Of a stretch of DNA of 64,000 nt, positions 3,397 through 43,367 are shown piece after piece. The notes under the pieces are model-generated. The model was not told the DNA's origin. It saw only the letters and a program-made list of their open reading frames with translations, and ran no database searches. The translations under genes and the position numbers were made by a program. Origin of the DNA: Longimicrobiales bacterium (GTDB taxonomy: Bacteria; Gemmatimonadota; Gemmatimonadetes; Longimicrobiales; Gaopeijiaceae); assembly GCA_965116905.1 (NCBI GenBank), contig OZ220732.1:768001-832000 (forward strand), in the 5' to 3' direction. The stretch's first letter is position 1. Every line of letters starts with the position of its first letter.

Positions 3397-4512
3397 TCAG
3401 AACAGGGTCGGATTGGGCAGCCGGAAGCGGACGCGACATCCTGCCGGGTAGCTGAAGCGCCTTTTCCGGGTTCCGGGCTCGACCTCGATTCGCTCGGCTT
3501 GTTCCATGGCTTTCAGCTGCTTCCTTAGGTGCCCTTCGTGGAATATGGTCGCGTCGGACTGCACGAATGTCACTACTTCCTCAATCGACACCCACCCCGC
3601 GTCGCGGAACCTTCGGTCGAGCGCGTCCGTGAGGGCTGTGAAGTCAGGCTCGGCAACACCGAGCATCACCATCTGCTCGGAGTCGCCCCCCCGAAAACTG
3701 AAGTCTCCAAATGGAGCGACCTTCCAGATTGCCTGCTTCATGCGGTCTGACCCGAGCGAGTGACCAGTGGCGAAGAACACGGAGTACCTGAGACTATTCC
3801 CCTTGTACAGGTGAAAGTGGAGCACATGGCTAGCGCCAGCGCTCTTGAGCTGGGCCTTGTAGAGGGAGTAGAGATGCCGACGCCGGTCACTACCATCCAT
3901 CGCCGCTGCTTGTCGCCACTCGGTGGTGCCGAACAACGCGTCCATGTGGGGCTCGAATTCTTCCGTGGTCAAGAAGCGGTTGATCTCCTCCCACATGAAC
4001 GTGACGTACACCTCGCATCTCGGGTTCTCGAGAATGCCCCGGACCACGCTGAGCGGGATGTCCTTGACGCCGAATGGGTCCATCATCACGAGGGCCGGGG
4101 CCATTTGCTTCTTTTGATCTTCCAGTTCCTGGAGCACTTCGGCCATACGGGATTGGAACGAGTCTTCCAGCACGTGGACTTGCGCGCTCGAGGGCAACTT
4201 GGGTCGCCACCGATTCACCCGCCCGTTGAGGTGTGCCGCTCGCTTGGGATCCTGCTCAATGAACACGAACACCACTTCTGCGCGGATGGTTGCCGGGTGC
4301 TCGGCCAGCACCCGCATGGCCACCACCGCGGAACCTTCTTCACCCCCGGCGTATTCGCCCGGTCCAGCGAACCCGTCGACGAATAGAATCCGACCATTCG
4401 CATTTCCCATGCCCAGAATCGGAAACCAGGCCTTCAGATACTCCGCCAGCAGGAGATGCTTGCCTTCTGTGTGGTCGTCTCGCTCCCAAATCGTCGCCCT
4501 TGGTGCTGCCAT
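3397..4512 (-). CDS. tcmP: Three-Cys-motif partner protein (SAM-methyltransferase-like, C-terminal wHTH)
   Basis: HTEGKH N-terminus, FVDGFAGPG and MDPFG motifs; directly downstream of DUF5131. Confidence 0.85.
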   Translation of the reverse strand: MAAPRATIWERDDHTEGKHLLLAEYLKAWFPILGMGNANGRILFVDGFAGPGEYAGGEEGSAVVAMRVLAEHPATIRAEVVFVFIEQDPKRAAHLNGRVNRWRPKLPSSAQVHVLEDSFQSRMAEVLQELEDQKKQMAPALVMMDPFGVKDIPLSVVRGILENPRCEVYVTFMWEEINRFLTTEEFEPHMDALFGTTEWRQAAAMDGSDRRRHLYSLYKAQLKSAGASHVLHFHLYKGNSLRYSVFFATGHSLGSDRMKQAIWKVAPFGDFSFRGGDSEQMVMLGVAEPDFTALTDALDRRFRDAGWVSIEEVVTFVQSDATIFHEGHLRKQLKAMEQAERIEVEPGTRKRRFSYPAGCRVRFRLPNPTLF

Positions 4513-4517
4513 CGACT

Positions 4518-5315
4518 CTACGCTAGCTCTACTTTGTCCTCGCCCGGAAACTCGTCCCAGGTCACCCCATCCAGCTCCCGTCCTCCGGCCTTTGGCGTCC
4601 GGCCACCCCACTGCTTGAAGAAGAACGGCACCCGCGCCGACCGGCACTGATCCCGCAGCTGCCTCGCCCACTGGCGACTCATCGGCCGCGCTCGCGCCCC
4701 GCTCTCGCCACCCACGATGACCCAATGCAGTCCCGCCGCCTGGTCGGACCCGTTCAGGAAGCCTCCCAGGTCAAGGGGGCCCAGCAGAGGCTCGCAGCTG
4801 AGAAAGCGGATGACGGCCGGGACCGCGAGAAGGTGCCGCACCCGGTAGTCAACCGCCTGATCCTCCACCGAGGTGCCGATCCAGATGTGGGCCGGAAGGC
4901 CGTCGGGCAGCAGGTCCCGGTTACGCCCGACGAACTTCGCCGCTCGGGCCGGTCGCTTGGTCAGCACCTGATACACGTGTCGATCCACGTCAAGCATCAC
5001 GCGGAAGCACCGCCTCACGAACTCCTCCGGAACGTCGCGGTGGAACAGGTCCGACATGGAGTTGACGAATACGCGCCGCGGAGCCCGCCAGGATCCCGGG
5101 ATCGCGAGCCTTGCCGGCCACACTCTGACCGCGAAGGGGTCGGCGCGGTTTTCGGGGGTGTCCACGACCGGCATGCGCGCCCGATAGGTGGTCGCCAGCA
5201 GCCTCTGGGAAAGGGTCGCCGCGTAGCAGTGGTCGCACCCCCGTGAAACGCGGGTGCATCCCGTCGTCGGGTTCCAGGTCGCGTCGGTCCATTCGATCGC
5301 GCTGCGGTCGGGCAC
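4518..5315 (-). CDS. DUF5131 / phage Gp37-Gp68 family radical-SAM-like protein
   Basis: SAIEWTDATWNP, GCTRVSRGCDHCYA, FVNSMSDLFH, WVIVGGESG, FFKQWGG; GTG start with AGGAGG RBS. Confidence 0.9.
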   Translation of the reverse strand: MPDRSAIEWTDATWNPTTGCTRVSRGCDHCYAATLSQRLLATTYRARMPVVDTPENRADPFAVRVWPARLAIPGSWRAPRRVFVNSMSDLFHRDVPEEFVRRCFRVMLDVDRHVYQVLTKRPARAAKFVGRNRDLLPDGLPAHIWIGTSVEDQAVDYRVRHLLAVPAVIRFLSCEPLLGPLDLGGFLNGSDQAAGLHWVIVGGESGARARPMSRQWARQLRDQCRSARVPFFFKQWGGRTPKAGGRELDGVTWDEFPGEDKVELA

Positions 5316-6482: not shown

Positions 6483-8723
6483 CTACTGCGAAAGACCGGT
6501 GTGAACCGGCACTTGTATGATTGGCCTCAGCGGCTGGAGTTGCGCTCGGTAGGTCTGGACGACACGGTCGTAGAGGTCCTGTACTCTCGGTGCCTCCACC
6601 GTCACGATGAGCGCGTAGCGGATCTTGCCGGCGCTGGTGTCGCTCCGACTCTCCGAACGCGCGTTGTAGTGAATGTCAAAGACGGGCCCATCTAGGCTTT
6701 TTCCGAGCTTGCCAACACGACGGTGGAGGCAAGTCTCCCATTTGTGCGCGTCATCGCGAAGTGGCCAATCCGTAGCATAGAGTTGCGCTGGCTGGAAGAA
6801 CGGGGCCGTATTCGGATGAATCGCGTCCTTTCGACGGAACTTGGACCTGTGCGGCCGAAAGAAGACCGACAAGCCGCTCTTAGTGTAGTTGCCTGGATGT
6901 TCAGGATCCACGGCAGTGGCGAAGCAGAATGTCGCGGTGATCTGGACTCTCCCACTCAACTCGCCCGGCGGTAGCGGTAAGCGAATACGCCTGTAGGCTG
7001 CTGCGGTGATCTCATCCTGGTAGACCACACGCACACAGCCGTCAGGGCAGATGACGAGGTCGTCCAAGTCGGCGGGCAACCGACCCCACCCGGTTTCGTG
7101 CCTTGGCCCTGTGCCCGGATCGGTACAGTGGATCAAGAGTGCTTTGATGGCGAGCGGGCCGAGCACCGGCCCCAAGTGCGCGCGCACTGCGAGTGCGGAC
7201 CGCATTGCCAAAGGCGCTGCATAGCTTGTGCCTTGCGTCGCGATGGCACGGTCGGAATCTGTGGGGTCGTTTACCCAGAAAGCTTCGTGCTGGCTGCCGC
7301 CGAAAGCGACAAGATCCGGCTTTACGATGCCAGGTGAGCGCCCTGGCCCCCTTGAGCTATAGGGTGCCCGTGCCCAGTTGCCGTTTCGCCGATCGCTCGC
7401 ACCTACGGTGAGCCCATTGACGCAGTCGGAGGGTACCTGGATACGCCAATTCTCAAGGACCGGATCTTGGGGTTCTTGGCCAGTGTTTCCCGCTGCGATG
7501 GTGGCAAGAGAGCGCCCATCCGACAGGTGCTCGTCGAGCACAGCCGTCCAAGCGTGGACATCGTGGTCGTCGATCGGCAAGTGTGGCCCAATGCTGAGAT
7601 TGAAGAATTCGTAGTTGCCTTGTGACAACACAGACCTGACCCGCTCGAGTACCTCGTACAGTTCGGACGGATCACGATATGAGTTGGCGTCAAGCACCCG
7701 GTGGTGGTCGATCCGGCACAACGGGCGCTGCACCTGCGTCTCATCGATTGAGCCGAAGAGCATCGCGGAAGTCACGCCCTCCCCGTGGGATAGTAGCTCC
7801 GCATCAGACTGGCCCACTCCCGGTCCGTCGACGGGATTCGCCCATGTAGTCAACGGACTCGACTCAGGCAATCCTCCATCGAAGACGGCCACACGTAGGT
7901 TCGGGTCGAGGACGCCCTGTCCCGGCAATGCGGCGATCGGCCGCGTTGTAGGCTGGCTGCGCAGAACTGGCTGAGTGTTACGGAGCCTCGGCATCTCCCG
8001 TACCACGCGCAGGAAAGAGAAGTGGGCAACGTCCTGCGCCTCTTGCTCATTCGCGCGCAAACGTAAGAAGCAGAGCTTCCCCGCGAAAAAGATGCGATTA
8101 AGGTCGGGATTGAGTCCGAGATCTCTCAGGTAGACCTCGAATGACGCAAGGATAAAGCGATCCGCCGGTTTCTCACTCGCATGAAGTACAACTTCGAGAG
8201 GGAGCCTCTCTTGGCCCATTGTGAGTGGTCGAATTCGCTCCCTAGCCTCGAAAACGGACACCCTTTCAATCGCGGGAAGATGGACAGCCCCGAAGGAGTC
8301 CTCTGTCCAGGAGGTTATCTGGTCTGCGAGTCTGCGGAAGGATCTCCGGGCTCCGGCCACGAACAACTCCGTGGTCACGGCTTCCGTCGGCTCGCGACCG
8401 CGGCTACGTTTTTCCGGGCGAATCTGGCGGGCACGGCTGCCGATCGCACGAAGACCACTCGCCCTTAGGAAGCTCGCTGGGAAGTAGCTCTTCGCATAGT
8501 ACTCTGGATGGAGGGTAAAGGCAGCAACTGCTTCATCGTTCGGACAGGCGTTTGTCGGTAGCCTATCCAATACCGAAGCGGTACTCGCCAGCATTGGCGC
8601 GACACGACCACGTGCCTCGCGAAAACTGTAAGGTGCTGCCTTCGGTCCACCGCCCGTGGTCATCTCGACAGCAGCCGTGAGGCGCTCACCGTACCCCAGC
8701 AGGTAGTTTCGCCCATCCGGCAT
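6483..8723 (-). CDS. ietS: S8 subtilisin-like serine peptidase (IetS-like)
   Basis: Catalytic motifs VFDGG, HGEGV, GTSYAAP; KPDLVAFGG; abuts an AAA gene. Confidence 0.85.
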   Translation of the reverse strand: MPDGRNYLLGYGERLTAAVEMTTGGGPKAAPYSFREARGRVAPMLASTASVLDRLPTNACPNDEAVAAFTLHPEYYAKSYFPASFLRASGLRAIGSRARQIRPEKRSRGREPTEAVTTELFVAGARRSFRRLADQITSWTEDSFGAVHLPAIERVSVFEARERIRPLTMGQERLPLEVVLHASEKPADRFILASFEVYLRDLGLNPDLNRIFFAGKLCFLRLRANEQEAQDVAHFSFLRVVREMPRLRNTQPVLRSQPTTRPIAALPGQGVLDPNLRVAVFDGGLPESSPLTTWANPVDGPGVGQSDAELLSHGEGVTSAMLFGSIDETQVQRPLCRIDHHRVLDANSYRDPSELYEVLERVRSVLSQGNYEFFNLSIGPHLPIDDHDVHAWTAVLDEHLSDGRSLATIAAGNTGQEPQDPVLENWRIQVPSDCVNGLTVGASDRRNGNWARAPYSSRGPGRSPGIVKPDLVAFGGSQHEAFWVNDPTDSDRAIATQGTSYAAPLAMRSALAVRAHLGPVLGPLAIKALLIHCTDPGTGPRHETGWGRLPADLDDLVICPDGCVRVVYQDEITAAAYRRIRLPLPPGELSGRVQITATFCFATAVDPEHPGNYTKSGLSVFFRPHRSKFRRKDAIHPNTAPFFQPAQLYATDWPLRDDAHKWETCLHRRVGKLGKSLDGPVFDIHYNARSESRSDTSAGKIRYALIVTVEAPRVQDLYDRVVQTYRAQLQPLRPIIQVPVHTGLSQ

Positions 8724-9911
8724 CTAGCTGCTCCCTCGCTTCCCGGATGTCGCGTACTTGCGGATGGTGTCGCGACTGACGCCGGTGATCACGTTAGCTT
8801 GCCGCTGCGAAACGACTCCTTCTTCGACTAGGGACACCGCGATCTCTTGGCGCCGCTTGCGATCCAGCGACCTAACGGTGTCACGGAGTACTCGTTCCAG
8901 AGCCCTCTCGATGTTACAGCCATCAACCGCGGCCATCCTCCGAGCGTGGTTCGCGGCCTGAACCGCGGCGCTGAAAGACGAGCCGGCTAGTACGCTGCCG
9001 AGTAGCCCCGGCCACGGCGATGTCGCACGTAGTTCCAAGTGAGCACGTAGTACGGCCGTGACCGCCTTTGCCTGTGGCAGGGGGAATTCTACTACGACCT
9101 CGAACCTCCTCCACACGGCGGAGTCGAGGAGCTGGGCATGGTTAGTCGCTGCTAGAAGCAGGCAACTGGGCGGCCACTCGTCGATTTCCTGAAGGAGCAC
9201 CGTGACCAAGCGTTTCAATTCTCCGATTTCGCTCGTATCGTCCCTGCGCTTCGCTACAGCGTCGAGTTCATCCAGCAGAAGGATGCAATCCCGGTCACGA
9301 GCGAAATCTAGCACGGCCCGCACGTTGCTCCCGGTGCGTCCCAGGAAGGAACTCATCACAGCTGAGAGGTCCAAGATGGCGAGAGGCTGCCCGAGCTCGC
9401 GAGCCATCCACTTGGCCGCGAACGTCTTGCCCACACCTGGTGGCCCAGTAAAGAGCACGGTCCGGGTCGGGTCCACCCCCGCCTCCGCCAATCGCGCTCT
9501 CGACTGGTGCTCGCGAGCGACTTGCCACAGAGCCGTCCAGACATGCGAGTCGTATACTGGCTCGACCTCTAGGACTGGCGCCTCGATCATCCGAACCAAG
9601 GGAAGGCGGGAGTCTCCGTCGACTGGAAGGCCTTCCGGCTCAATTCGACGGGTCGGATTTGCAGTCCGCGGATTCTCCCGCAGGAGAGCGGTCAGTTTGT
9701 CGGCCAGCTCGGGAACGGACGAGCGGTAGCGACGGGCGTATTTTCGTACGAGTACAGCGACATCCCGCTGGCGACCCGCAAGCGCGACCCTTGCCAAGTG
9801 GAAGATATCACTCGTCATTCTGTCGTTTTCGTCCGTCTGGACCATAAGATATGTCCGTATCGATGTTAACGGGTGGACGATTACGCGAACCTTCGAATCA
9901 GTATAGGCCAT
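8724..9911 (-). CDS. ietA: AAA+ ATPase (IetA-like); start probably near 9845 or 9818
   Basis: GPPGVGKT, LLLDELD, ATNH..LLDSAVWRRF; C-terminal HTH-like tail. Confidence 0.85.
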   Translation of the reverse strand: MAYTDSKVRVIVHPLTSIRTYLMVQTDENDRMTSDIFHLARVALAGRQRDVAVLVRKYARRYRSSVPELADKLTALLRENPRTANPTRRIEPEGLPVDGDSRLPLVRMIEAPVLEVEPVYDSHVWTALWQVAREHQSRARLAEAGVDPTRTVLFTGPPGVGKTFAAKWMARELGQPLAILDLSAVMSSFLGRTGSNVRAVLDFARDRDCILLLDELDAVAKRRDDTSEIGELKRLVTVLLQEIDEWPPSCLLLAATNHAQLLDSAVWRRFEVVVEFPLPQAKAVTAVLRAHLELRATSPWPGLLGSVLAGSSFSAAVQAANHARRMAAVDGCNIERALERVLRDTVRSLDRKRRQEIAVSLVEEGVVSQRQANVITGVSRDTIRKYATSGKRGSS

Positions 9912-31204: not shown

Positions 31205-32284
31205 GTGACACAACTCAGTGAGCAGATCGAAACCGCACGTCGCCGTGTCGTCTCCGATGGCTACGACATGTCTGTAGGTGAGCTGATCAGCCTTTACAGA
31301 GATCGCGAACTCGTGATCAACCCTATCTATCAGCGCTATTTTCGTTGGACCGATTCGCAAAAGACCAGATTCATCGAGTCGTTGCTGTTGGGAATCCCCA
31401 CCCCTCCGATCTTCGTGTTTCAGCAGGCCGGCGGGGTTTGGGAACTCATCGATGGCCTCCAACGGATCTCCACAGTATTGGAATTCGTCGGGGAACTCCG
31501 GCGCGACGGCGAGGTAGTGGAGCCGTCGTCTCTCGAAGGCACCAACCTTGTCCCGAGCCTTGCCGAGGTTGCCTGGGAGTCCCTCCCCATGCCGCAAAGA
31601 TTGGATATTCGCCGGTCCCGAATGCGGGTTGAGATTCTGAAGAAGGAGAGTGACGAGGAAGCCAAGTTCGAACTGTTCCAACGACTCAATACAGGTGGGA
31701 CACACCTGACCGACCAGGAAGTACGAAACTGTGTACTCGTAATGGTGAACCAGGAGTTTCATGATTGGTTGAGACGGCTGACCGAGTCCGATTGCTACTC
31801 CACGACAGTTGTGCTAAGCGACGTCAAGAAACAACAGCAACAAGACATGGAGATTGCGCTTCGATATGTAGCTTATCGACATGTTCCGTATGTCACAGGT
31901 CTAGACGTAAATGAGTACCTCGACCGGGCAGCGCTCACGTTGGCACGGGAAATGACAAGTGATCGGCGCGCTGCCGAAGAGACGGCCTTTTTCAAGACGT
32001 TTGAGCTCTTACGCTCGGCCTTGTCAGACGGGGCGTTCAAAAAGTGGGATGGCCAGAGACATGTTGGTGCATTCTCGGTTTCCGGGTTTGATGCCATCGC
32101 CCACGGTGTCGCGAGCAATCTGGAGCAGATTATCGCGATTCCAGACGCGGCATCGTGGGTGCGGGAGAAAGCCCGTGCGGTGTGGCAGGAGCAGAAGTTT
32201 CAGAAGAACTCTGGTCAGGGGGTTCGCGGCACAACGAGACTCAAGCATTTGCTGCCATTTGGAGAGACCTACTTTCGCCCATGA
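31205..32284 (+). CDS. DUF262 (ParB-like) domain protein
   Basis: P.YQRYFRW, IESLLLGIP.PPIF, LIDGLQRIST, FQRLNTGG. Confidence 0.9.
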   Translation: MTQLSEQIETARRRVVSDGYDMSVGELISLYRDRELVINPIYQRYFRWTDSQKTRFIESLLLGIPTPPIFVFQQAGGVWELIDGLQRISTVLEFVGELRRDGEVVEPSSLEGTNLVPSLAEVAWESLPMPQRLDIRRSRMRVEILKKESDEEAKFELFQRLNTGGTHLTDQEVRNCVLVMVNQEFHDWLRRLTESDCYSTTVVLSDVKKQQQQDMEIALRYVAYRHVPYVTGLDVNEYLDRAALTLAREMTSDRRAAEETAFFKTFELLRSALSDGAFKKWDGQRHVGAFSVSGFDAIAHGVASNLEQIIAIPDAASWVREKARAVWQEQKFQKNSGQGVRGTTRLKHLLPFGETYFRP

Positions 32285-33006
32285 ACGAAACGGTGCGCAC
32301 GACTGAACAGCTGCAGGAGTTTCTTGACGGCGACTTCGGGTGGCGAGTGAAGGAAATGTCGGATATTCGCACGGCAGCTCGGCGCGCCGATACTATGGCA
32401 CGAACGACGCTGGTTCGGGCTGGGATTGCGCTTGCGTATGCACACTGGGAGGGATTCGTAAAGAAGGCTGCGAACGCCTATGTGAGGTACATTTCCTGTC
32501 AGGGTCTACGGCATGTCGATTTGCGGACTTGTTTTGTGGCTCTCAGTCTTCGCAGACCGATTTGGAACCTGCAATCGTCGAGGAAGGCCGAGGCGATGAT
32601 AGCGGCGTTGGAGTCGGTGGTGGGCGAGCAAGCTGCACGGGCGAAGCTGAAAAAAGCAGTCTCAATCGGGACGGAATCCAACCTCAGTTCGAGTGTGTTC
32701 AGGGATATGGCGTGTTGGCTGGGATTGGATGTGGGGCACTACGAGACGAAGTGGCAGTTTATTGACGAGCGCTTATTGAAGCGAAGGAACTCAATTGCTC
32801 ACGGCAGTGGAGGGGAGCTCGTGCTAACGCAGGATGAGTTTGAGGAATTGGTCCATGACGTGGTACAGCTTCTCAGATGGTTTAAGACCGACATCGAGAA
32901 CGCGGTGAGTACGGAAGCATTCCGAAGCGGGAGTGTGGTAGGATTCTCGGACACCGGTGGCGGTGTCGGTGAGGAAGGCGGGCCCGTACGGGTGAAAGGT
33001 CAGTAG
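32281..33006 (+). CDS. MAE_28990/MAE_18760-like HEPN nuclease
   Basis: YAHWEGFVK, TESNL, RNSIAHG (Rx4H); ATGA-coupled to DUF262. Confidence 0.85.
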   Translation: MNETVRTTEQLQEFLDGDFGWRVKEMSDIRTAARRADTMARTTLVRAGIALAYAHWEGFVKKAANAYVRYISCQGLRHVDLRTCFVALSLRRPIWNLQSSRKAEAMIAALESVVGEQAARAKLKKAVSIGTESNLSSSVFRDMACWLGLDVGHYETKWQFIDERLLKRRNSIAHGSGGELVLTQDEFEELVHDVVQLLRWFKTDIENAVSTEAFRSGSVVGFSDTGGGVGEEGGPVRVKGQ

Positions 33007-33181: not shown

Positions 33182-33805
33182 TCACCCTCCGGGTATAGTG
33201 CGAACCCTCTCCGGCAGGCTCGTGCACGCTGCCGCGCGAACGGGACCGATTCGTCGGACCAACTCCTGCATCCTGTCAGGAGGAACGACCTGCATCTTGG
33301 CATCTCGCAATGCACGGAAGATCGCATCGGCCTGGCCGGTTTCTCCGAGCCCATCCGTCACCCGACCGTGGAGCAGTACATCGGCTGTCGATGCAAGTCG
33401 CAGTCCCGGGAATCGCTCGGCGCAGATCCGCCTCGCCTTGCGTTCGTCAATCAGTGCGACGGCGTCGCGCCCTACAGCATAGGCGATCGTCGCGGCCTCG
33501 CCGTCGTCCAGGGTCTCCTGGGCCTCGCCCTCCACAAGCGACCGGTAGACAGGTTCGTCGCTCCGCTGCAGCTCCACCGGGTCGATGGACCCGTCGACGA
33601 TCAGCGCTTCGAGCCCCTCCCAGGATCCGTGCCCCCGCCCTCTGCCTTCCCACAGCTCGCGGCGAACGTTGGTCGTCGCCAGAAAGCGATTCGGGAACGC
33701 ATCGACGATTTCGGACGCCGTCCGCGTCGCGACGAGATTGATAATCACGCTTGCGTCGGTTACGACCGGGGCGCCCGGGTCACCCAGGAAGCTTGACGAT
33801 GTCAT
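33182..33805 (-). CDS. PIN-domain protein
   Basis: VTDASVIINL, LDDGEAATIAYA, LIDERKARR. Confidence 0.8.
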   Translation of the reverse strand: MTSSSFLGDPGAPVVTDASVIINLVATRTASEIVDAFPNRFLATTNVRRELWEGRGRGHGSWEGLEALIVDGSIDPVELQRSDEPVYRSLVEGEAQETLDDGEAATIAYAVGRDAVALIDERKARRICAERFPGLRLASTADVLLHGRVTDGLGETGQADAIFRALRDAKMQVVPPDRMQELVRRIGPVRAAACTSLPERVRTIPGG

Positions 33806-34955
33806 CCGCCTCGCTCCTCTCGGTCTCTGCTCCCTCGAGGAGATCTCGCACTTCAAGCCTATGGAGCCTGAGCATCCGGGCCAGCTGTCCTTCGCTGTAG
33901 TACCCTTTCTTCCACGCTTCGCGGACCAGTAGCGCCAGGCGTCGTGGGACGTGGTCAGTGCGCGACGCTGGATCCTCGGCTCGATGGGAGGTGCCCAGGA
34001 CCTGCTCCGCCTGCCGGTCGGTGATGCCCCCGTGCGACTGGAACCAGTCCCACGTGCCGCGTCGGGCGAGATCGAGCTCCTCGAGGCGGCGCACCATGGC
34101 TTCGCGCGAGACGGTGAACCGGTCGGCCAGAAGGATTACGTGGCGTCGAGTCAGGTGCGAATGCCCGGCCGTCAGCTCTTCAAAACGCAGCTTCACGGCG
34201 CGTGCCGGGGTCAGGAAGGCGCGCGCGAAGTGGTCCGCGTACCGCTCTTCACGAGAGTGGGGGCTGTCGTCCCGCCTGAGGACGTTCGGCTCATGACGGG
34301 TCGATGTTAAGTGTCCGAGCTCGTGACCAGCGGTATAGGCGCGGCGGCTGGCAGGGTGGTTGGCGTTCAGGAGGACGCACGCCCCCACTGCGGCGTCGTG
34401 GGCGAACAGTCCCGAGATGCGGCTGCCCAGAGGTCGCACGTACACGCGGATGCCGAGGTCCAGCTCCATGACCGAGACGATGTCCCTGACCGGGCCGAAT
34501 CCGAGGCCGAGCCAGACACGCAGCTCCTGTGCGTCGTGCTCCGCCTGGGAGCGGACGTTGCCGGGCAGGAGGGGTCGGACGCGCGGGAAATTCCGGTGTC
34601 GGGCTACGCCCAAGGCATTCTCCAACTCCACCTCGGCGCTGACGAGGTCCGTCAACAGCCGGGCCGCCTGCTCGGTGCCGTCGTCCGCGCAGCGCGCCAC
34701 GCTTCGGAACTGGGGAACGAGATCTATGTGGACGGCCTCCCGCCGCAGAATCGCGTTCGCCGAGGTGCCGTAGCGAATCGCGAGCGCCTGTAGCTCGTGC
34801 GTGCGGACGCGCCGCTTCCCCTGTTCGATTGCGACCAGGGTGGTGCGGGCGACATCGATCGCGGCGGCTGCTTTGGCCTGGGTGAGCTCGGCTGTCTTCC
34901 GGGCAATCTGGAGGCGCTCGCCGATGGTGCGGTCCGTCAACCTTTCAGTTCTCAT
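33780..34955 (-). CDS. XRE-HTH - ImmA/IrrE (M78) metallopeptidase fusion
   Basis: N-terminal HTH LTQAKAA...ARTTLVAIEQG; HELGH; E..AD.FA.AFL. Confidence 0.9.
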   Translation of the reverse strand: MRTERLTDRTIGERLQIARKTAELTQAKAAAAIDVARTTLVAIEQGKRRVRTHELQALAIRYGTSANAILRREAVHIDLVPQFRSVARCADDGTEQAARLLTDLVSAEVELENALGVARHRNFPRVRPLLPGNVRSQAEHDAQELRVWLGLGFGPVRDIVSVMELDLGIRVYVRPLGSRISGLFAHDAAVGACVLLNANHPASRRAYTAGHELGHLTSTRHEPNVLRRDDSPHSREERYADHFARAFLTPARAVKLRFEELTAGHSHLTRRHVILLADRFTVSREAMVRRLEELDLARRGTWDWFQSHGGITDRQAEQVLGTSHRAEDPASRTDHVPRRLALLVREAWKKGYYSEGQLARMLRLHRLEVRDLLEGAETERSEADDIVKLPG

Positions 34956-34963
34956 CGATCGCT

Positions 34964-36307
34964 TCACACCCATTGCTTGACGAATGAGGTTGGCCCCAGC
35001 GAGTTCAGGAAGTCCTGCCATTCATCCGCGTGCCGCTCTAAGAGCTGCACCATCCGCCCCTCGATGTCCTCGACGCCCTCGATTACGCGACCGAGGGATT
35101 TCGCGTGGCGCCTCACGATCGGCCGCACATCGCCATCGGCCATGGCGGCGAGGTCGGCCATGTGTCGAGTTCCGGCGATGGCGTAGTCCCGGTAGGCACC
35201 ATTGGGGTGCTGGAAGTCCGGATCAACTGCGGTCTCCAGCGTGCTCGCGTTCATGTCAGTGCAGATGTAGCTCTCAGGATCTTCGGTGAGACCAGCCGCG
35301 TGCACGCTGACCCTTCTCAGCATACACGCGGCGCACACCCCGCAGTGGCGCCACGACCGGCGGACGGAACTCCAGCGGTTGTCCTTCCAACAGGATTTGG
35401 TGGACGGCCACCTGTCGTCGCCGGTGGCGACATAGCTAGCGAGCGTCTCCCCCTTGGTGTGCCAGAGGCGCGGGAAGCGGTAGCGGATGGGCTGTTCGAA
35501 GAGCGCTTCCAGAAACTGCTCCATGCGATGCATGAACTCCGGATGGTTGCGGTAGTCGGGGTGTGCGTGCCCCACGGTCACGAGCGGTGGACCCAGGCTG
35601 CCCTGACCGCTCTCGGGCACGATGACCCTGTTCGCGCGGGTCAGGTACGCGGCGATTCCGGCAGTGGTCGCAAACTTGAACCCGCGGCTCATGGCGCTTG
35701 GCTCGGAGCGTCGGGGGACCCGCACCCGGTAGGGAATCGACACAAATGGCTCCCCGTTGCGGGTCATTGCGCGTGGCCTCCGACCCAGACGCACCCGTAC
35801 CACTTCCTCCCCCAGACTTGCCTTGGCGAGCGCGGCGACCGCGAGCGAGTCCATGCCCTCGCTGTAGGCAAGGACCGCTCTCGAGGGCGGGAACAGAGCG
35901 AATCGATCTCCCTCAGGCTCCTGAATCGGGCTCTCTCTCTGGTGGAAATCGACTGACCAGCGGTCACCTGTGACGAGCCTGAGCGCCTCCAGCAAGGCTT
36001 CCTTCACCGGTGGAGCCCGCCAACGATCAGGGTCATCTACGGGCACGCGAATCGACAGGCGCCGAGTCCATCCACGCGGCGGCCGTCGGCACGACAGGTC
36101 CGCGAACTCCACGCTTGCCGCCACGAGCATAGCGTCGCCCACTACCGGCTCCCAAGGCGAAAAGGCGTACGACTCGAGGGCTGTCGTTGAGAAGCGGATA
36201 TGCCGGCCGAGCTCGCATTGGAGCCAGCCGTCCTGTTGCGGGCCTTCAGGCTCGCAGACGGAGACTCGCGCCTCGGCACGCGCCGCGCCGGTTGCCGACC
36301 GGTTCAC
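34964..36307 (-). CDS. QueC-like (7-cyano-7-deazaguanine synthase / QatC-like) PP-loop enzyme
   Basis: QatC-like N-domain (ADLSCRRP..GWTR.L), variant PP-loop YSEGMDS, PESG, TKGE, SCW...HCGVCAACMLRR. Confidence 0.85.
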   Translation of the reverse strand: MNRSATGAARAEARVSVCEPEGPQQDGWLQCELGRHIRFSTTALESYAFSPWEPVVGDAMLVAASVEFADLSCRRPPRGWTRRLSIRVPVDDPDRWRAPPVKEALLEALRLVTGDRWSVDFHQRESPIQEPEGDRFALFPPSRAVLAYSEGMDSLAVAALAKASLGEEVVRVRLGRRPRAMTRNGEPFVSIPYRVRVPRRSEPSAMSRGFKFATTAGIAAYLTRANRVIVPESGQGSLGPPLVTVGHAHPDYRNHPEFMHRMEQFLEALFEQPIRYRFPRLWHTKGETLASYVATGDDRWPSTKSCWKDNRWSSVRRSWRHCGVCAACMLRRVSVHAAGLTEDPESYICTDMNASTLETAVDPDFQHPNGAYRDYAIAGTRHMADLAAMADGDVRPIVRRHAKSLGRVIEGVEDIEGRMVQLLERHADEWQDFLNSLGPTSFVKQWV

Positions 36308-36864
36308 AGTTGCGGCCCCTCGTCGATTCCGTCGCGCATGACCGGGCTACGGGCCGGTGCCGGGGATCCGGAATCGTCAACGATTTGGGAAGCCAGACCT
36401 CGGACATCGACCGCTTGGCAAGCCTCGGTGAAGCGCCCACTGACACGACCCCAAGGGAACCAGGTCTTCCTCAGGTAGTGCTCTTTGGTGGAGCGTGAGT
36501 TGTCGAGGAGGCACTCGTGAAGCGTGTCGGCGACCGCCGACTCCACCATGTCACGTCCCGACGACGCACTGGCGTCCTGCTGGCTCAGGTAGGTAAGGAA
36601 CGTCTGGGCGGTCTTCGAGCCCGAATGCTCCTGTCGGAGGGCCTCGATCGCCCTAGCGAGGTCGGGCGCGAAGAGGGTGCGTTGGCCGTTGGGTGCCAAG
36701 ATGCGTACGATTGCCTTGAGAGGCAGTTCGCGAGCTTCCTTCAGGAGCGCGGCATCCATTGCCTCAGTGACCTCCCCGGGCGAGAAAGCCCGGATTTCCA
36801 GCCGCTTCGCGACTTGCTTCCAACGCTTCCCGAGCGGCAGGCTCTTCCAAGGGCCATCGCTCAC
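36304..36864 (-). CDS. Unknown helical protein, first gene of the QueC operon
   Basis: GTG with AGGGAGG RBS; GTGA overlap with the QueC start; N-terminus MSDGPWKSLP. Confidence 0.75.
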   Translation of the reverse strand: MSDGPWKSLPLGKRWKQVAKRLEIRAFSPGEVTEAMDAALLKEARELPLKAIVRILAPNGQRTLFAPDLARAIEALRQEHSGSKTAQTFLTYLSQQDASASSGRDMVESAVADTLHECLLDNSRSTKEHYLRKTWFPWGRVSGRFTEACQAVDVRGLASQIVDDSGSPAPARSPVMRDGIDEGPQL

Positions 36865-36895
36865 GTGCTTCCTCCCTGATCGCTGTCTGTGCTGT

Positions 36896-36934
36896 AATGT
36901 CAGAAATCCTATATGTAAAAGATGACATTGTCAA
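36896..36934 (-). promoter_or_regulatory. Sigma70 promoter with overlapping operator-like palindromes
   Basis: Minus strand TTGACA-17 bp-TAGGAT; TGACA-t-TGTCA palindrome and AATGTCA/TGACATT inverted pair. Confidence 0.7.
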
Positions 36935-37044: not shown

Positions 37045-40000
37045 CTACGCTTCCGTTCCCGCCCTCCGATTCGTCACCGTCGGCTCCGTCGCCAGCATGG
37101 ACCGCCACCCGGCCACCGTCTCCGCGCTTACATCAAGCGCGGCCGCCGCAGCCTCGTCGAGGACCCGGCGAGCTTCGCACCGTTCCGCCTCACGCATGGG
37201 CAGGAGCTCCACGTCCCGCACCTGCTGCCACGCGTCGGCGAGCGCGTCCCAAGCCGGGTTGTCTGGGGTCGGCACGCGGACTTCACGGAGGTGGTGCAGC
37301 TGCCAAGTTGGGTAGGTCAGCGTCTTCGCCCGTCGATTGAGCAGCATGAGCCGGACTGGGGTGCTGTTCCACCAAGCCGCCAGCGCCTGACCCTGCCGAT
37401 CGCAATCCACGGCGACGGGAACCCACCAGCCGAAGGCCGGCGAGGTCGCCCACAGTGCGTTCACCCGGCCGGTGACCGTATTCATCCGCATGGCGACCAG
37501 CAGCCTGCTCCGCTGTCCGGCGTAGCGTTCAGCCAGCCCCTCCTTGCCTGGGCGGGGCACGTAGCCGACGTCCGGCTCTTCGCGCACCTTGCGCCGCAGC
37601 TTGCTGCTCACGGAGTGATAACCGGGGAGCGATCCCCGGGCATCGGGTTCCGCGACTTTGTAGGCGTCCTGAATGCGTTGTCCCGCCGGGCCGACTGCGT
37701 GGTCGCTCCCGAGGGGTTGCAGGCGCGGCGACGCTTCGACCTGCCGGACGACGTCGGCCAAGGCACCGTTGAACCACTGTACCGGCGTCCAGTCCCCCGC
37801 TTCGACACGGTCGCTTGGCCACTCCGTGACGCGGGCCCACTTGGTCGGCTCGCCAGCCAAGATCGCATCCGCGGCGGCGACGGCCTCCTCAGGCGTGGAC
37901 GGCATCCGGCGAAGCGAGACGAACTGGGTTGGCGGGCGGGTGTTTCCGTGCCAGCGGCGAGCGACCAGCAGGCACTCGTGGATGCTGGTGTTATCGGAGA
38001 AGTTGATGTGGCGCGGATCGTGGGAGGTGACGATGCGCTCGATGTGGAAGCGGCGGGCCAGGAATCTGCGTTCGGCGACGCCGGCTGGACCGGTGCAGCC
38101 AGTGCTCGGGACGACTTTCGCCAAGATTCCTTGACCGCCAAGGAGTCGGTCCGCCAGTGGCGAAAAATAGGTGCTGACGCTATTGGAGTTGATCACTCCT
38201 AAGACTTCGTCGTCCGATTGCTCTACCGAATCCCGAATCCGCAGCTCGTGTTCCTGCATCCGCCTAACGGTGTCTCTCCCGAACTGCCGGTTGCGCTGTT
38301 TGTTGTTCGTGAACGGTGGGTTCATCAGGACCAGATCCAGGTCCTTCAGCGGGTACTCCGCGTCCGCAGCGCTGTCGACGTGATGCGCCGCGAGCCCGGC
38401 CATGGTCCGCAAGGGCCGGATCAGCGTGTGCAGCGAATCCTCCCGGTCGGTCGCACCCAGAATGTCAAGCGACCCCGCCCTCACGCTCCCGTCCGGCTGC
38501 GGCCCGTGCTTTAGGGTGAGCAGGTTCATCCGCCGGTAGTCGACCGTCGGAGCACCAAGCGTCAAGTTACAGGCCGCCAGCTGAACGGCCGTTCGGTTCA
38601 CGTCCAACCCGCAGAGCACGTTTTCGACCAGTAGACGGTGCAGCTTGTCGGAATCGTCCAGGCCATGCCCATTGTCGTCGTCCGCCCCTGCCTCTTCGAC
38701 TCGCTTCTTGATCACATGCAGCGCGGCCATTAGCAGTGTCCCGGTCCCGCACGCAGGGTCCATGATCCGCAGCCGCGACACCTCTTCCGGGTCGCTCCAG
38801 TCGCGGAGGTCCGGGCCGAGGGCGAGCCGCGCCAGCATGAGCGCCGACAGGTTGTTCGTGTAGAAGGCCCCGTAGGCGGTCGCGTCGGGGAGGATGCGGT
38901 GATAAAGCGGGCCGGCGTGGTCGTACCCCAGCGCACTCAGAGAGTCGGCCACTCTATTCGCGCACTCGGCGAGGATGCGCAGCGCGTGACCCGCCCAGCG
39001 TCGATCGGGAATCACGTCCAGCACGGCCAGCGGAGGTTCGAACACCGGCGCGTAGTCGCGTTTCAGGATCGCCTCCCAGGCAGCGCGCAGAACGACCGCT
39101 GGCTTGTCGGCGCCGCCGACCTGATTGAGCTTGGCGATCCCCTCCATGGTCGGCACTTCGCCCAGTCGCCGGTGCAGTAGACAGGCGTTGGCCAAGAGCA
39201 GCGCGGCGATGGTGCAGATGTTGCGGTCGCCCGCTTCCGAAGGAAGGCCGAGCGCGGAAGCGACATCGCCCGCCAGCTCCCCTTCCAGGAACAGTCGCGC
39301 GGCCGCGCGCACGGCGTGCTCGATGTCCTGCGACACTTGGAGGCCGGGTTTACCAAGACCTGAGGCGGCCACGACGTGCGCGTAAACGCCTTGGCTGACG
39401 TCCGCCAACTTGAGGTCGGGTTGAGTGACCGGCTCAGGTGGATCCGGGCCCACGGGGGGCGGATCCGGTCCATCGTAGGCCCGCACGAACCGCGCCGGGT
39501 CCTCCGCCAGCCGGCCGTCGTGCGACTGGAGTGCGCGCAGCACCTTGCCCACCGCGCGATAGCCGTCCGTCCCCGCCGCCAGCGCCGAAACCAGATCCGC
39601 GCCCGGCTCGATCGGAATGGGCACTACGATGTACCCGAGGCGCTTGCCGGGGCTCTTTCGCATCACCCGGCCCACCGCCTGGACGATGTCCACCTGACTC
39701 TGGCGCGGCTCCATGAAGACGATCGCGTCGAGAGACGGCACGTCCACGCCCTCAGTGAACAGACCGACATTGAACAGCACCCGCGCGACCTTCTGGACGT
39801 CCGCCTTCGCCAAGTCGCGCAGCGCCTGATTCCGCGTGAGCGCGCTGTCGGAGGCGTCCAGATGTTGTGCGTTGACAGGCAGAGACGCCTCCGCGTCTGC
39901 GTCGTCCTTCCGCAACCGGCGAGTGGTGATGCGGCGGAGCTCCGGGAGCTTCATGCCCTCAGCGTAGAAGCTTGAACGGGCAATGGAGTTGGAGAACGCA

Positions 40001-41496
40001 ATCGTGCGGTGGAGGCGTCCGGGTCCTTCCTCTTCGGAGCCCTCGGTCACGCCGTTGATGGCGAGCGAGGTGCCCAAGAGGCGGATGACGTCCTGCGAAG
40101 TGACCACCAAAGGCTTGCCGCGAGCGACCTCCCGATCTTCCCCGAGGGATATCAGCTGACTGGTGACGCCCGCGGGAGCCCGGTCTTCGTGTATCCCCAG
40201 CACGATGACCCGGTAGTCCGACAGCATCCCCGCGTTGACCGCCTTGGAGAAGGACAGCGTGTGGAGTTCTGGGCCGTACACGTCCAGGTCGCCCATGTCG
40301 ACCGTCTCGATGCCCTTGGTCTTGAGCGCAGTGCGCGACGAGGCCGTGTAGATCCGCGGGGTAGCGGTCATGTAGAGGCGCTTGGACGATTGCAGCGTAT
40401 CACCGTGCACTGCCCGAAAGCCGCTTAGCTCCTTCGTCTTTCCGTTCTTCGATTCCACAGTGGTGACGCCGGTGGTGCGGTGCGCCTCGTCCATCAACGC
40501 CAAGTCGAAAGCGGGCGCGCCATGTGTCGCTTGAGCAGCCATCACGTGGCGTAGCGACTGGTAGGTGGAGAAGACCACGCGGGTGCGTTCGCCCTCGGGA
40601 TTCGTCAGCATCGCCGCGAGCGCCTTCGCGTCCGACGTGACCGCGCACTCAAGCTCGGACAGCCCGATGTCGTTCCTGGACTCGCCCCTGCCGCCCGCCG
40701 TGTAGTCTGAACAGACCACGCGGCTGTCGAGCTTCCTCGTCGTGTGCCGGAGCCATTCGCGCCGCGCCTGGGATACCAGCGCGATCGATGGCGCGACGAA
40801 GAGAATCCGTCCCCCATTAGGCACCATCCGCTCGGCGATCCGCAGCGAGGTGAACGTCTTGCCGGTCCCGCAGGCCATGATCAGGCGTCCGCGGTCGTGG
40901 TTGGCAAGCCCTTCAACTACGTCTTCGATGGCCTCAGCCTGGAGCGGCCAAGGATCTCGCACCGGCCGGGTCGCGACCTCCTCGGCAATGGCGTCATCCC
41001 CGTGCCGCTGGAAGTCGATCCGCCGGACTGCCGGAGTCAGCGCCTCGATCTGCACCTCGGCGGTCTTGGTCCACGGACACGTCGCGACGATCCACCGCAT
41101 GGCAAAGACCGGCCTGTTCCCGCCTCCTCCAATCTGCGACGAGGCCAAAAAGGAGTCGATGTGGCCCTTGCCCACGCGCGCCTTCGCATCGTAGCACTTG
41201 CATTGGATGGCGATCCAGCTGCCGTCGGCGTGCTCCGCCACCAAATCGATGCCGATGTCGTTCCCGCCGAGCCCGGTCACCTCCACCCGCTCCGGCCAAT
41301 CCGCCCAGCGGTGCACCTGGACGACCTCGTACTCGGGGTTCTCCATGAGCACACGGCAGACCAAGTTCTCGAACCAGCGGCCCTTCTCGGATTCGTCGCG
41401 GCTCTGGCGGCGAATCCGATCAAGGACATCGCTGACGGTGGTCTCTCCCGCTCGGAGGCCGAGGGGGAGTTGGTAACCGCGCGGTTCGCCCTTCAC
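37045..41496 (-). CDS. Type ISP-like single-chain RM enzyme (Mrr-like nuclease, SF2 helicase, N6-adenine MTase, TRD)
   Basis: GIDL...IQCK, MACGTGKT, DEAH, QAVGRVMR, DPACGTG, NPPF. Confidence 0.9.
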   Translation of the reverse strand: MKGEPRGYQLPLGLRAGETTVSDVLDRIRRQSRDESEKGRWFENLVCRVLMENPEYEVVQVHRWADWPERVEVTGLGGNDIGIDLVAEHADGSWIAIQCKCYDAKARVGKGHIDSFLASSQIGGGGNRPVFAMRWIVATCPWTKTAEVQIEALTPAVRRIDFQRHGDDAIAEEVATRPVRDPWPLQAEAIEDVVEGLANHDRGRLIMACGTGKTFTSLRIAERMVPNGGRILFVAPSIALVSQARREWLRHTTRKLDSRVVCSDYTAGGRGESRNDIGLSELECAVTSDAKALAAMLTNPEGERTRVVFSTYQSLRHVMAAQATHGAPAFDLALMDEAHRTTGVTTVESKNGKTKELSGFRAVHGDTLQSSKRLYMTATPRIYTASSRTALKTKGIETVDMGDLDVYGPELHTLSFSKAVNAGMLSDYRVIVLGIHEDRAPAGVTSQLISLGEDREVARGKPLVVTSQDVIRLLGTSLAINGVTEGSEEEGPGRLHRTIAFSNSIARSSFYAEGMKLPELRRITTRRLRKDDADAEASLPVNAQHLDASDSALTRNQALRDLAKADVQKVARVLFNVGLFTEGVDVPSLDAIVFMEPRQSQVDIVQAVGRVMRKSPGKRLGYIVVPIPIEPGADLVSALAAGTDGYRAVGKVLRALQSHDGRLAEDPARFVRAYDGPDPPPVGPDPPEPVTQPDLKLADVSQGVYAHVVAASGLGKPGLQVSQDIEHAVRAAARLFLEGELAGDVASALGLPSEAGDRNICTIAALLLANACLLHRRLGEVPTMEGIAKLNQVGGADKPAVVLRAAWEAILKRDYAPVFEPPLAVLDVIPDRRWAGHALRILAECANRVADSLSALGYDHAGPLYHRILPDATAYGAFYTNNLSALMLARLALGPDLRDWSDPEEVSRLRIMDPACGTGTLLMAALHVIKKRVEEAGADDDNGHGLDDSDKLHRLLVENVLCGLDVNRTAVQLAACNLTLGAPTVDYRRMNLLTLKHGPQPDGSVRAGSLDILGATDREDSLHTLIRPLRTMAGLAAHHVDSAADAEYPLKDLDLVLMNPPFTNNKQRNRQFGRDTVRRMQEHELRIRDSVEQSDDEVLGVINSNSVSTYFSPLADRLLGGQGILAKVVPSTGCTGPAGVAERRFLARRFHIERIVTSHDPRHINFSDNTSIHECLLVARRWHGNTRPPTQFVSLRRMPSTPEEAVAAADAILAGEPTKWARVTEWPSDRVEAGDWTPVQWFNGALADVVRQVEASPRLQPLGSDHAVGPAGQRIQDAYKVAEPDARGSLPGYHSVSSKLRRKVREEPDVGYVPRPGKEGLAERYAGQRSRLLVAMRMNTVTGRVNALWATSPAFGWWVPVAVDCDRQGQALAAWWNSTPVRLMLLNRRAKTLTYPTWQLHHLREVRVPTPDNPAWDALADAWQQVRDVELLPMREAERCEARRVLDEAAAAALDVSAETVAGWRSMLATEPTVTNRRAGTEA

Positions 41497-41543
41497 CTCA
41501 GGTTACTCCCGAGCCAGCGGGCAGGTCGAACAGGAGGGTCACC

Positions 41544-42179
41544 CTACGCGATCTCGAACAGACTACGGAACCACAGTACGAACCTCCGGGCGGCGTCGCT
41601 GTCGTCGCGAAGATAGTGGGCTTTGATAGCCAAACCGTAAGGACGACCCGGCTCTTCCTGCCAAGCCAGCCAAGTGTGGAGGACTGCTTTCTTGGCGGAG
41701 ACCAAAGGGAACAGCGCGCCCAGCTCTTGGGCCGTACTGGTCGAGTCCTCAGCATGAGGAAGTAGCTGATCCTCGCCGTCGATAAGGTCTTCCAGAAAAT
41801 CCTCCAATGCACCGGTGCGCCGATTGTCCGGCATGAGCCACACCCCAACACGCGTGCCGAACTCGCTGGACTCGCCTATGAAGCCGCCTGTTGGAATCTT
41901 GCGTGGAGCCTCAACACCCACGCTTTGCAGCCGCGAGCGCACCCCATTCCAGGTGGCCTTTAGATCGGCATTCGCATCCAGAACGAAGGCCAGCGATCTT
42001 CCGGTTCCCGCGCGAATGGAAACCGTTATCGCACGGAGAACCCCTGACTTGCCCTTCGCATCCACGAGTTCCGGGATGGACTGCGAGTCGACTCCTTGTC
42101 GGAGAAGTAGCTGGCCGATCACATGCTCGTCGTCCTTGCCCTCCAGGTACGCCGCATTGCCCGTCGCGAATTCAACCAT
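41544..42179 (-). CDS. DUF3226-like (TOPRIM-like) protein
   Basis: LEGKDD, VLDAN, WLMPDN..TGALEDFL, KA..H.WLAWQ.EPG. Confidence 0.8.
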   Translation of the reverse strand: MVEFATGNAAYLEGKDDEHVIGQLLLRQGVDSQSIPELVDAKGKSGVLRAITVSIRAGTGRSLAFVLDANADLKATWNGVRSRLQSVGVEAPRKIPTGGFIGESSEFGTRVGVWLMPDNRRTGALEDFLEDLIDGEDQLLPHAEDSTSTAQELGALFPLVSAKKAVLHTWLAWQEEPGRPYGLAIKAHYLRDDSDAARRFVLWFRSLFEIA

Positions 42180-43258
42180 CAGCGCATTTCGATGCTCAAG
42201 TCAGCCGCTGTAACAATGGCCTCCGGATCAAAACTCACGCTGCTGTCGAGTTGTCGCTCGATCTTCTGAACCGACACCACTTCGGCGAGATCCTGACGGG
42301 CCCTAAGCAGGGCCGCCAAGCCATTGATGCAGTCCAAGCTGTGAGTAGTTGCGAATACTTGAATTGAGGATGCTAGCGCCGCATCAACGACGAGTTTCCA
42401 CATTTCCTCCATTACGGTCCAATGCAGGCCGGTGTCAATTTCGTCGATCAGAAGAAACCCGTCTGCGGAACGCACCAAGGACAAAGCGAGCGCGAGAAGT
42501 CGCCGCATCCCGTCGCCGTAGCTCCCGATTGGAGCACGGGGAGAACCTGCCTGGAAGCCCAAGACGATGCCCCCCGTGCGCCCCGCGCCCTCGCCAGTCA
42601 GGAAGTGGATCGAATCAAGGTCCGCTTGGAGGATCCTCATTGCACTGACTACCTCAGACTCACGGCCTGCGACGAGAACCTGATCCCACAGATCAGCCAT
42701 TTCACGGGGGCGCAACGACTCGGCCGTAACGAATTGGATGGGAAGCGACTTCAGCCGCCATGGCCGACCTTCCCGATGCCTCAGCGCCGCTGGCGGCCAG
42801 TCCAGGGAGCCGTCTTCCCTCAGGGGCAGCTTAAGGTGCTCATGTCCTTTTCCGCGTTGGATTAGCAACGCCAAGGGGTGAAGATCGGCTGTGGGCAGGT
42901 CAAACAGGTCATGGGATTCATCCGCCCACCCTTCCACGATTTGAATTGCTACACGTCCAAGACCCTCGGCAGAAGACACGCTCAGGCGGCTACCGAGTCC
43001 GATCCTGTGGCCGCGGAACTGGTGATAGACGGGGTACCGCAACTTGCGACCGCCCGAGGTAACGTGGGATTCGCTCCGTCGCCTCATAGGCGCGACCACA
43101 GCGGTAGGATCGCCGCGAGACGCGAGCAACTCGACGGCCTCCAAGACAGAGGTCTTCCCACAATTGTTGGCGCCTACCAACAGGTTGACCTTCGCCAGGT
43201 CGCGGAGTTCGTACTCCTTGAAGCTGCGGTAGTTTTCCAATCTGAGCGTACGGATCAT
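42179..43258 (-). CDS. ABC-type (AAA_15/AAA_21) ATPase
   Basis: GANNCGKTS, YGDGMRR, LLIDEID.GLH, TTHS. Confidence 0.9.
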   Translation of the reverse strand: MIRTLRLENYRSFKEYELRDLAKVNLLVGANNCGKTSVLEAVELLASRGDPTAVVAPMRRRSESHVTSGGRKLRYPVYHQFRGHRIGLGSRLSVSSAEGLGRVAIQIVEGWADESHDLFDLPTADLHPLALLIQRGKGHEHLKLPLREDGSLDWPPAALRHREGRPWRLKSLPIQFVTAESLRPREMADLWDQVLVAGRESEVVSAMRILQADLDSIHFLTGEGAGRTGGIVLGFQAGSPRAPIGSYGDGMRRLLALALSLVRSADGFLLIDEIDTGLHWTVMEEMWKLVVDAALASSIQVFATTHSLDCINGLAALLRARQDLAEVVSVQKIERQLDSSVSFDPEAIVTAADLSIEMR

Positions 43259-43367
43259 CCCCCATAGCCCCTGTGCGCTGGAACAGGCCACCGACTGGGT
43301 AGTCGATGCTCGGCTACCAAGGTGCCATTGTGGCCGATTCGTCGCCAGTTTCAAGCCGCATCCACCC

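Follow-up and report, generated by a model that had tools for sequence, protein, structure and literature searches.

The 64,000-nucleotide stretch analysed here (the window) belongs to a Longimicrobiales bacterium of the family Gaopeijiaceae (assembly GCA_965116905.1, contig OZ220732.1, positions 768,001 to 832,000). Between positions 33182 and 36934 its minus strand carries a compact operon of four genes, here called A, C, H and T in the order in which they are read. C resembles QatC, the QueC-family enzyme of the anti-phage system Qat, and A encodes its putative partner; H combines a DNA-binding and a peptidase domain and T resembles a PIN nuclease. The features, in window coordinates, are:

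36923..36933, no strand assigned: palindromic operator TGACA-W-TGTCA over the -35 box, putative binding site of H
36906..36934, minus strand: candidate sigma70-type promoter, TTGACA-17 nt-TAGGAT
36898..36902, minus strand: second operator half-site, TGACA, just past the -10 box
36871..36875, minus strand: GGAGG, ribosome-binding site of gene A, read from the sequence
36304..36864, minus strand: gene A, 186 amino acids (aa), GTG start, protein start MSDGPW; predicted all-helical partner and likely substrate of C
34964..36307, minus strand: gene C, 447-aa QatC-like PP-loop enzyme
33780..34955, minus strand: gene H, 391 aa from ATG; XRE helix-turn-helix (HTH), M78 (ImmA/IrrE) HExxH peptidase and weak UPF0175-like C-terminal domain
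33182..33805, minus strand: gene T, 207 aa from ATG; PIN (VapC-like) nuclease, likely toxin

Re-reading the coordinates of the open reading frames (ORFs) confirmed four minus-strand genes coupled as described in an original prediction made from the same letters: A and C overlap in GTGA, C and H are separated by 8 bp, and H and T overlap by 26 bp. That prediction took the operon for a distinct QueC-based defence system. In PADLOC v2.0.0 A matches nothing, C matches QatC, H matches RmrA and T matches PDC-S70, and the four do not add up to a complete match to any one listed system. To that extent the operon is distinct, but its H-T half is a toxin-antitoxin (TA) type that had been predicted earlier (PMC5499597). 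The four-gene combination was not described in the literature searched, although it could be listed in current DefenseFinder models or among the candidates of large defence screens. Overall, the operon is real, widespread and apparently undescribed, and it combines two known modules by way of a new partner family.

Gene order and distribution

The original prediction had named four-gene synteny as a check, and the order is conserved in homologous loci as well as in a second clade. A scan of GTDB genomes with the alignment of C gave 286 stretches, the best 80 of which were kept as loci. In these, A lies directly upstream of C in 80/80, and C is followed by H in 78 and by T in 77, every miss being a contig end. 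Plasmids give the same picture starting from H: an H homologue (E<=1e-20) occurs in 25 records, exactly those that encode a full-length C of this clade, side by side in 25/25, and 14 of them are conjugative. Linkage thus holds whether one starts from C in the genome loci or from H on plasmids.

Hosts are found among Alpha-, Beta- and Gammaproteobacteria, Gemmatimonadota, Acidobacteriota, Chloroflexota, Nitrospinota and Geomonas. The operon becomes accessible to laboratory testing through its copies in Pseudomonas lactis, Sphingobium and Janthinobacterium. A word search found 1,734 relatives of C among 7,998 scored candidates, and the profile of A gathers 817 clusters at 50% identity, fragments included. 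The spread is patchy. A sample of 400 Alphaproteobacteria, taken besides the centre genome, holds the operon in 5 genomes and a QatC above its cut-off in 4; the host phylum holds the operon in 2/301 genomes, and the 19 further host-genus genomes examined yielded no member of this clade. Gene A had no match among 50,697 phage records.

Scanning viral contigs returned one distant locus (L084, 4351-8023), in which C has the canonical SGGLDS and which led to the second clade. The clade covers L084 and L098-L177, and its counts come from the best 80 metagenome loci. A homolog of A, here A' (hhalign 95%, E 3.6e-8; reversed control 0.4%), is present in 66/66 loci with room for it, H in 61/63 and T in 51/51, and HExxH is kept in 58/61 full-length H proteins. 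A FastTree tree of 88 proteins separates the window's clade I (28 rows) from QatC (13 rows), each with a support of 99, and A'-type operons form several branches; the tree also places canonical QueC beside clade I, a long-branch join on which we do not rely. The same gene order in a distant clade and the several A'-type branches point to an architecture that is old and widespread among QatC-like enzymes.

Defence genes are enriched nearby. At E<=1e-30 PADLOC matches 32/124 of the nearest ORFs, at 17/34 chosen loci, compared with 2/40 ORFs in a control that is small and not taxon-matched and whose two matches both lie in the window's own island, at its left edge. Within that island Pfam and PADLOC detect IetA, GmrSD, McrBC-like, methylase, HEPN, type IIG and PDC-M38 matches, so that the defence-island setting proposed earlier is borne out on the flanks of the operon. 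We consider it likely that the conserved four-gene operon is an anti-phage system.

The four proteins and the operator

The top fold match of C is QatC (9y01_B; Foldseek E 2.9e-16, TM score 0.66), hhalign to QatC gives 100% and PADLOC QatC an E of 3.9e-34. The QatC fold is present with its N- and C-terminal extensions and Zn site, and the score on the NCBIfam QatC model is 118.6 bits, under the cut-off of 280. C does not qualify as a canonical QueC, with 28.9 bits on TIGR00364 where 150.3 are required, 447 aa instead of about 220, and host queD-like and queE genes that lie far away. Its residues include S149-E-G-M-D153-S154, R208/F212, ESGQG, H/Y249-x-D251-Y-R-N-H-P and the Zn cysteines 306/322/325/328; the motifs SEGMDS and SCW...CGVCAAC are as first reported. 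Conservation was counted on 121 word-search sequences, and not on the locus set, which is partly motif-selected. S149, S154 and R208 are found in 121, D153 and F212 in 120 and the Zn cysteines in 120-121; T284-K285 is nearly invariant too. The PP-loop of the family reads S-[DENAK]-G-[MLV]-D-S, its second position being D in 63, E in 48, N in 4, A in 3 and K in 3, and never Gly. The acidic PP-loop noted in the original prediction is thus a family-wide trait, S[DE]GMDS, in which all catalytic residues are retained. With a nearly invariant catalytic set the enzyme looks active. In QatC the equivalents S156/S161 are required for defence (PMC13279940). The substrate loop Y-x-D-Y-R-N-H-P keeps Y249 in 112/121 and D251 and R253 in 121/121 each, and the window has His at 249. 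As YPDYRNHP it is unlike the STRTTHP of QatC and like the YPDCR of QueC.

Gene A has no match in Pfam, PADLOC or NCBIfam; its profile found only weak helical-repeat matches among PDB sequences, and the ESM Atlas no usable match. The model is all-helical with a predicted local distance difference test score (pLDDT) of 84, and Foldseek and VIA-align found no clear fold match (best Z 7.6, root mean square deviation 5.7, 107 aligned). QatB is not among the listed fold matches although 9y01 is in the Foldseek library, and the two folds could still be alike. Against 13 QatB sequences hhalign gave 1% for A and 6% for A', and neither the PADLOC nor the NCBIfam QatB model matched.

What is conserved in A is its beginning. 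The N-terminus reads MSDGP[WH] in 67/68 homologs and x-[ST]-DGP in 83/83 loci found through C; of 145 further representatives 131 show M-x-DGP at the start, 7 behind a longer annotated start, and 7 are without it. A Ser at position 2 permits methionine removal. A' starts with AENE in 50, PDDD in 5, PDGD in 3 and others in 7 of the 65 full-length proteins with a recognisable start (of 76 ORFs; the motif pattern was drawn up with the sequences already in view, and 11 rows, most of them truncated at contig ends, were omitted). The conserved partner N-terminus expected from the original prediction therefore holds within the clade, but the motif differs between clades (SDGP, AENE, PDDD). Second-clade partners begin MAENE, MPDDD, MPDGD or MAGDNE, and this motif shifts together with the substrate loop of the enzyme.

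Eight residues from the stop, A also carries G-[LIV]-D-[ED]-G in 62/73 matches (window 36304-36327). That this is merely the ribosome-binding site of C was partly rejected, as all four Gly codons occur at the first Gly and both Asp codons at the Asp; the last Gly alone is biased to GGG/GGA, toward such a site. The motif could be a second functional tail, for instance a contact for H.

Co-folding with ATP and Zn predicts that A binds C, as the original prediction had suggested checking. The pair scored 0.86 and the best of three controls 0.00, a mark reached by 116/157 solved complexes and 2/215 mismatched pairs, counts that hold roughly here; contacts agreed between runs to at least 72%, and partner pLDDT was at least 76. 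In the predicted complex the tail of A lies at the active-site mouth of C, with residues 3-13 among the confident contacts, and the tightest contacts join conserved R124, E128 and R132 to loop 243-246 and the C-terminal helices of C. The C side consists of loop 243-250 and helices 371-404 (the list includes 203-204, 243-250, 307 and 325-327). Loop 243-250 and the helices match the surfaces that QatC uses for QatB (PMC13279940).

H has HTH and Peptidase_M78 matches in Pfam, and its best PADLOC match is RmrA (E 3e-25). HExxH is present in 82/85 alignment rows, the remainder being gaps. UPF0175 matches below cut-off were obtained for 13/28 C-termini (best E 2e-4); UPF0175 proteins are antitoxins of PIN toxins. 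Pfam found no GAF domain in the whole protein or in the 28 C-termini. T itself has no Pfam match, and 9/56 family members have a weak PIN match. D17, E50, D101, E103 and D120 are invariant in the 56 sequences, and the PIN acidic residues are kept in both clades. In PADLOC T matches only PDC-S70 PIN models (E 1e-8), and not RmrT. H is likely a repressor and antitoxin, and T likely a toxin. Two isolate genomes (L026, L047) have a broken A or C but retain undamaged H and T, as would fit if the antitoxin were not A-C. Along with L054, L082, L083, L023 and L057 they make up the interrupted loci, where a frameshift or break hits A or C and spares H and T, or else hits H (two metagenome-assembled genomes); some of these may be assembly errors.

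The promoter scan found one site where 0.5 were expected by chance, which alone is indistinct from chance, yet TTGACA stands at the same place in most homologs. Of 78 regions upstream of A, TGACA occurs in 77 (shuffle mean 7.6) and TGTCA in 67 (7.3), with 74 pairs at 6-nt spacing. The second TGACA follows the TGTCA half-site by 24-25 nt in 71 pairs. In the 4.2-Mb host genome TGACA[AT]TGTCA occurs a single time, and related sites stand ahead of many second-clade operons. Conservation of the first TGACA half is owed in part to the promoter, whose -35 consensus it overlaps. A conserved operator at the promoter makes autorepression by H the natural reading of the sequence. RNA-library contigs held just short divergent pieces, mostly of H and T, which cannot show transcription and were not used as evidence. 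A single DNA run carries the full 6-kb stretch with no difference from the window, and the window may derive from that run.

Proposed mechanism and alternatives

We propose that C tags A on infection, that tagged A activates the peptidase of H and that T is thereby released, and we put the probability of this whole reading at roughly 45%. At rest, a dimer of H would sit on the TGACA-W-TGTCA operator, and the C-terminal domain of H would likely keep T neutralised. Infection would prompt C to use ATP for the adenylation of a small carboxylate, which it would then attach to the Ser exposed by Met removal. The leading named candidate is a guanine-like base such as 7-carboxy-7-deazaguanine (CDG), at less than even odds. 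Modified A would then activate the HExxH peptidase, leading to cleavage of H and derepression of the operon, and freed T would cleave RNA and arrest the cell. That C tags the N-terminus of A is the sounder part, and we find it somewhat more likely than not; that tagged A acts on H and T falls a little short of an even chance.

Comparison with known systems suggests that the operon works like QatB-QatC and Cap9-CdnD, yet it belongs to neither Qat nor type IV CBASS. With Qat it shares several features of C, namely the QatC fold including its two extensions, the motifs of the N-domain, ExG, HP and the Zn site, as well as a small helical partner encoded directly upstream that has a conserved N-terminus and is predicted on the same surfaces. 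In contrast to Qat, H and T stand in place of the KAP ATPase and TatD; a Pfam scan of 30 window ORFs, a subset, found neither these nor QueD, QueE, tRNA-guanine transglycosylase (TGT) or CD-NTase, in agreement with the original prediction. C also falls in a separate clade, under the NCBIfam cut-off and with an S[DE]GMDS PP-loop, and A is not detectably related to QatB and starts with Ser instead of Gly-Thr-Ser (MGTS). In type IV CBASS (Cap9-CdnD), too, an enzyme of the QueC family is encoded next to a partner whose conserved N-terminus allows Met cleavage, and the aromatic plus Asp/Asn loop of the C clade resembles the CDG-reading Tyr/Asp pair, in an uncertain register. It differs in that none of the four proteins matches a CD-NTase or the Cap10 TGT, that C has 447 aa compared with about 185 for Cap9, and that the acceptor is not Gly.

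On the other side, in the pair of HTH-DUF955 (COG2856) and PIN genes predicted by Matelska 2017, an XRE HTH is likewise fused to an HExxH peptidase, and the gene is transcribed together with the PIN gene. The pair was put forward as a three-component TA in which self-cleavage releases the toxin, with the upstream signal left open (PMC5499597). The H-T pair described here differs in always following A-C, and a term search of the available text and supplement of that paper did not return QueC. A-C is a candidate for the missing trigger of those modules. RosmerTA (RmrA-RmrT) shares the antitoxin RmrA as best PADLOC match of H, but here the toxin is a PIN nuclease without an RmrT match, and the pair always comes with two additional genes. 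CapH-CapP and IrrE-DdrO also pair an M78 peptidase and an XRE repressor with an operator at a defence-operon promoter, whereas H is fused in one protein, has no detected GAF domain and is tied to one operon type. The supplement of PMC13329287, searched by term, does not contain PF06114.

QueC-family protein tagging is a recent finding, and for Qat the attached molecule and output are not known according to PMC13279940 and PMC13376578. The operon would add a third context of QueC-family enzymes, with a new partner family of non-glycine N-termini. Its simple predicted readout, PIN toxicity and operator release, could allow the first substrate of a QatC-like enzyme to be found genetically.

Several points weigh against the proposed mechanism. 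Both known acceptors start with Gly (PMC13279940, 10.1101/2025.04.06.647259), and no A or A' start examined does so. Ser2 of A is absent from the confident contacts of the co-fold, and as a QatB-QatC structure exists (9y01, released 2025-10-01), the passing score may partly reflect likeness on the C side. The register of the C loop shifts with the alignment: against QueC, H/Y249 and D251 take the place of the Tyr/Asp pair, against QatC Y252 and N254 do. According to PMC13279940, PMC13376578 and PMC13639016, reconstitution of QatC activity has yet to be achieved and the first substrate of the enzyme is still to be identified. QatB and QatC alone defend against some phages (PMC13279940), so that A-C could be the output and H-T the regulator. 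The supply of CDG is a further difficulty. We searched 50 carrier genomes (of the 80 loci plus the host) for QueC, QueD and QueE, and 10/50, 4 of them isolates, had none, in searches that have false negatives.

Canonical QueC was found in 26/50 carriers and a PF01242 protein in 36/50. QueE searches are unreliable as negatives because three models found no QueE in one genome (G013) that has QueC and QueD; another (G032) has QueC and QueE but no PF01242 match. The 10 carriers speak against a host-made CDG substrate, and the deazaguanine tag of the original prediction is so far not supported. The host (G000) encodes QueE (C1:896258-896902), a QueD-like protein (C1:4142014-4142412) and TGT (C1:3976284-3977369), and neither canonical QueC nor QueF was found in its genome. 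In its family QueE is present in 39/48 genomes and canonical QueC in 1/48. QueE without QueC across the family, together with a host without QueF, would leave CDG without a canonical sink in this lineage, operon or not.

One variant of the mechanism would turn this around. C may capture CDG made by phages with 7-deazaguanine DNA and join it to the Ser N-terminus of A, and tagged A would fire the protease-toxin switch. This would explain the QueC-like YPDYR loop of clade I and the persistence of the operon in hosts seemingly unable to make CDG. We regard it as unlikely. If it were true, sister clades (AENE, PDDD, other loops) would read other molecules and form programmable N-terminal tagging sensors.

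The strongest competitor, a possible but doubtful one, reverses the control. H would be a fused regulator like CapH-CapP that senses DNA damage or single-stranded DNA and gates A-C as a QatBC-like core, with T as a parallel backup toxin; the damage trigger of the original prediction, so far not supported, would belong here. The operator does cover the promoter of the entire operon, and the defence by QatBC alone (PMC13279940) fits as well. However, the GAF domain present in CapP and IrrE was not detected in H, and on plasmids the H clade never occurs without C (25/25), which we take to be tighter than expected of a swappable regulator. Other QatC-like enzymes pair with a nuclease (TatD in Qat, a fused restriction endonuclease domain elsewhere), which suggests that T fills the effector slot.

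We think it improbable that plasmids or genomic islands carry the operon as a stress-response or addiction module without a role in phage defence. Such a module would suit the 25 plasmid records, 14 of them conjugative, the predicted TA type of H-T (PMC5499597) and the 17/34 loci without a strong PADLOC match among the nearest ORFs. The enrichment of defence genes nearby (32/124 vs 2/40) argues otherwise, as does the place of the nearest characterised relatives, QatC and RmrA, in anti-phage systems (PMC13279940; 10.1101/2022.05.11.491447).

Slightly less probable still is that C serves as a non-catalytic or ATP-sensing scaffold, the acidic residue blocking adenylation, so that A-C binds a phage protein and leaves no covalent tag. 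A second PP-loop position that is never Gly in the 121 close homologs and an A without N-terminal Gly would agree with this. S149, D153, S154, R208, F212, T284-K285 and the Zn cysteines are nearly invariant, though, the sister clade with the same operon retains SGGLDS, and the D/E/N/A/K variation looks like that of a tolerant position.

Finally, a metabolic QueC making preQ0 for a host with QueD-like, QueE and TGT proteins but no canonical QueC, for all the likeness of YPDYR to the YPDCR of QueC, is very improbable: QueE without QueC is a trait of the host family (39/48 vs 1/48), for which reason C was rejected as a substitute for host QueC, the operon is rare in the phylum (2/301), no QueF was found in the host, 26/50 carriers already have QueC, and QatC fails to complement an E. 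coli queC mutant (PMC13329287).

Neighbouring genes and related enzymes

Directly upstream of the operon (37045-43354) lie a 1,483-aa Mrr-helicase-methylase fusion (type IIG/ISP-like) and a PDC-M38 A/B pair. On the other side (31205-33006), a DUF262/GmrSD-N gene and a HEPN gene (NsnA-like, MAE_28990-like) are convergent with T. Further left, an IetA match (8724-9911, E 2e-77) stands beside a 746-aa ORF that is possibly IetS (window 6483-9911), and with a PDC-M30A match at 3397-4725 the defence island reaches further left still.

QatC-like proteins of 620-710 aa (P0411, P0423, P0437 and others; L186, L198, L199, L200) form a clade of their own in the tree. Several carry PF18742, which we take to be a DpnII/MboI-like restriction nuclease domain, and these proteins appear to represent another QueC-based system, in which the effector is fused to the enzyme.

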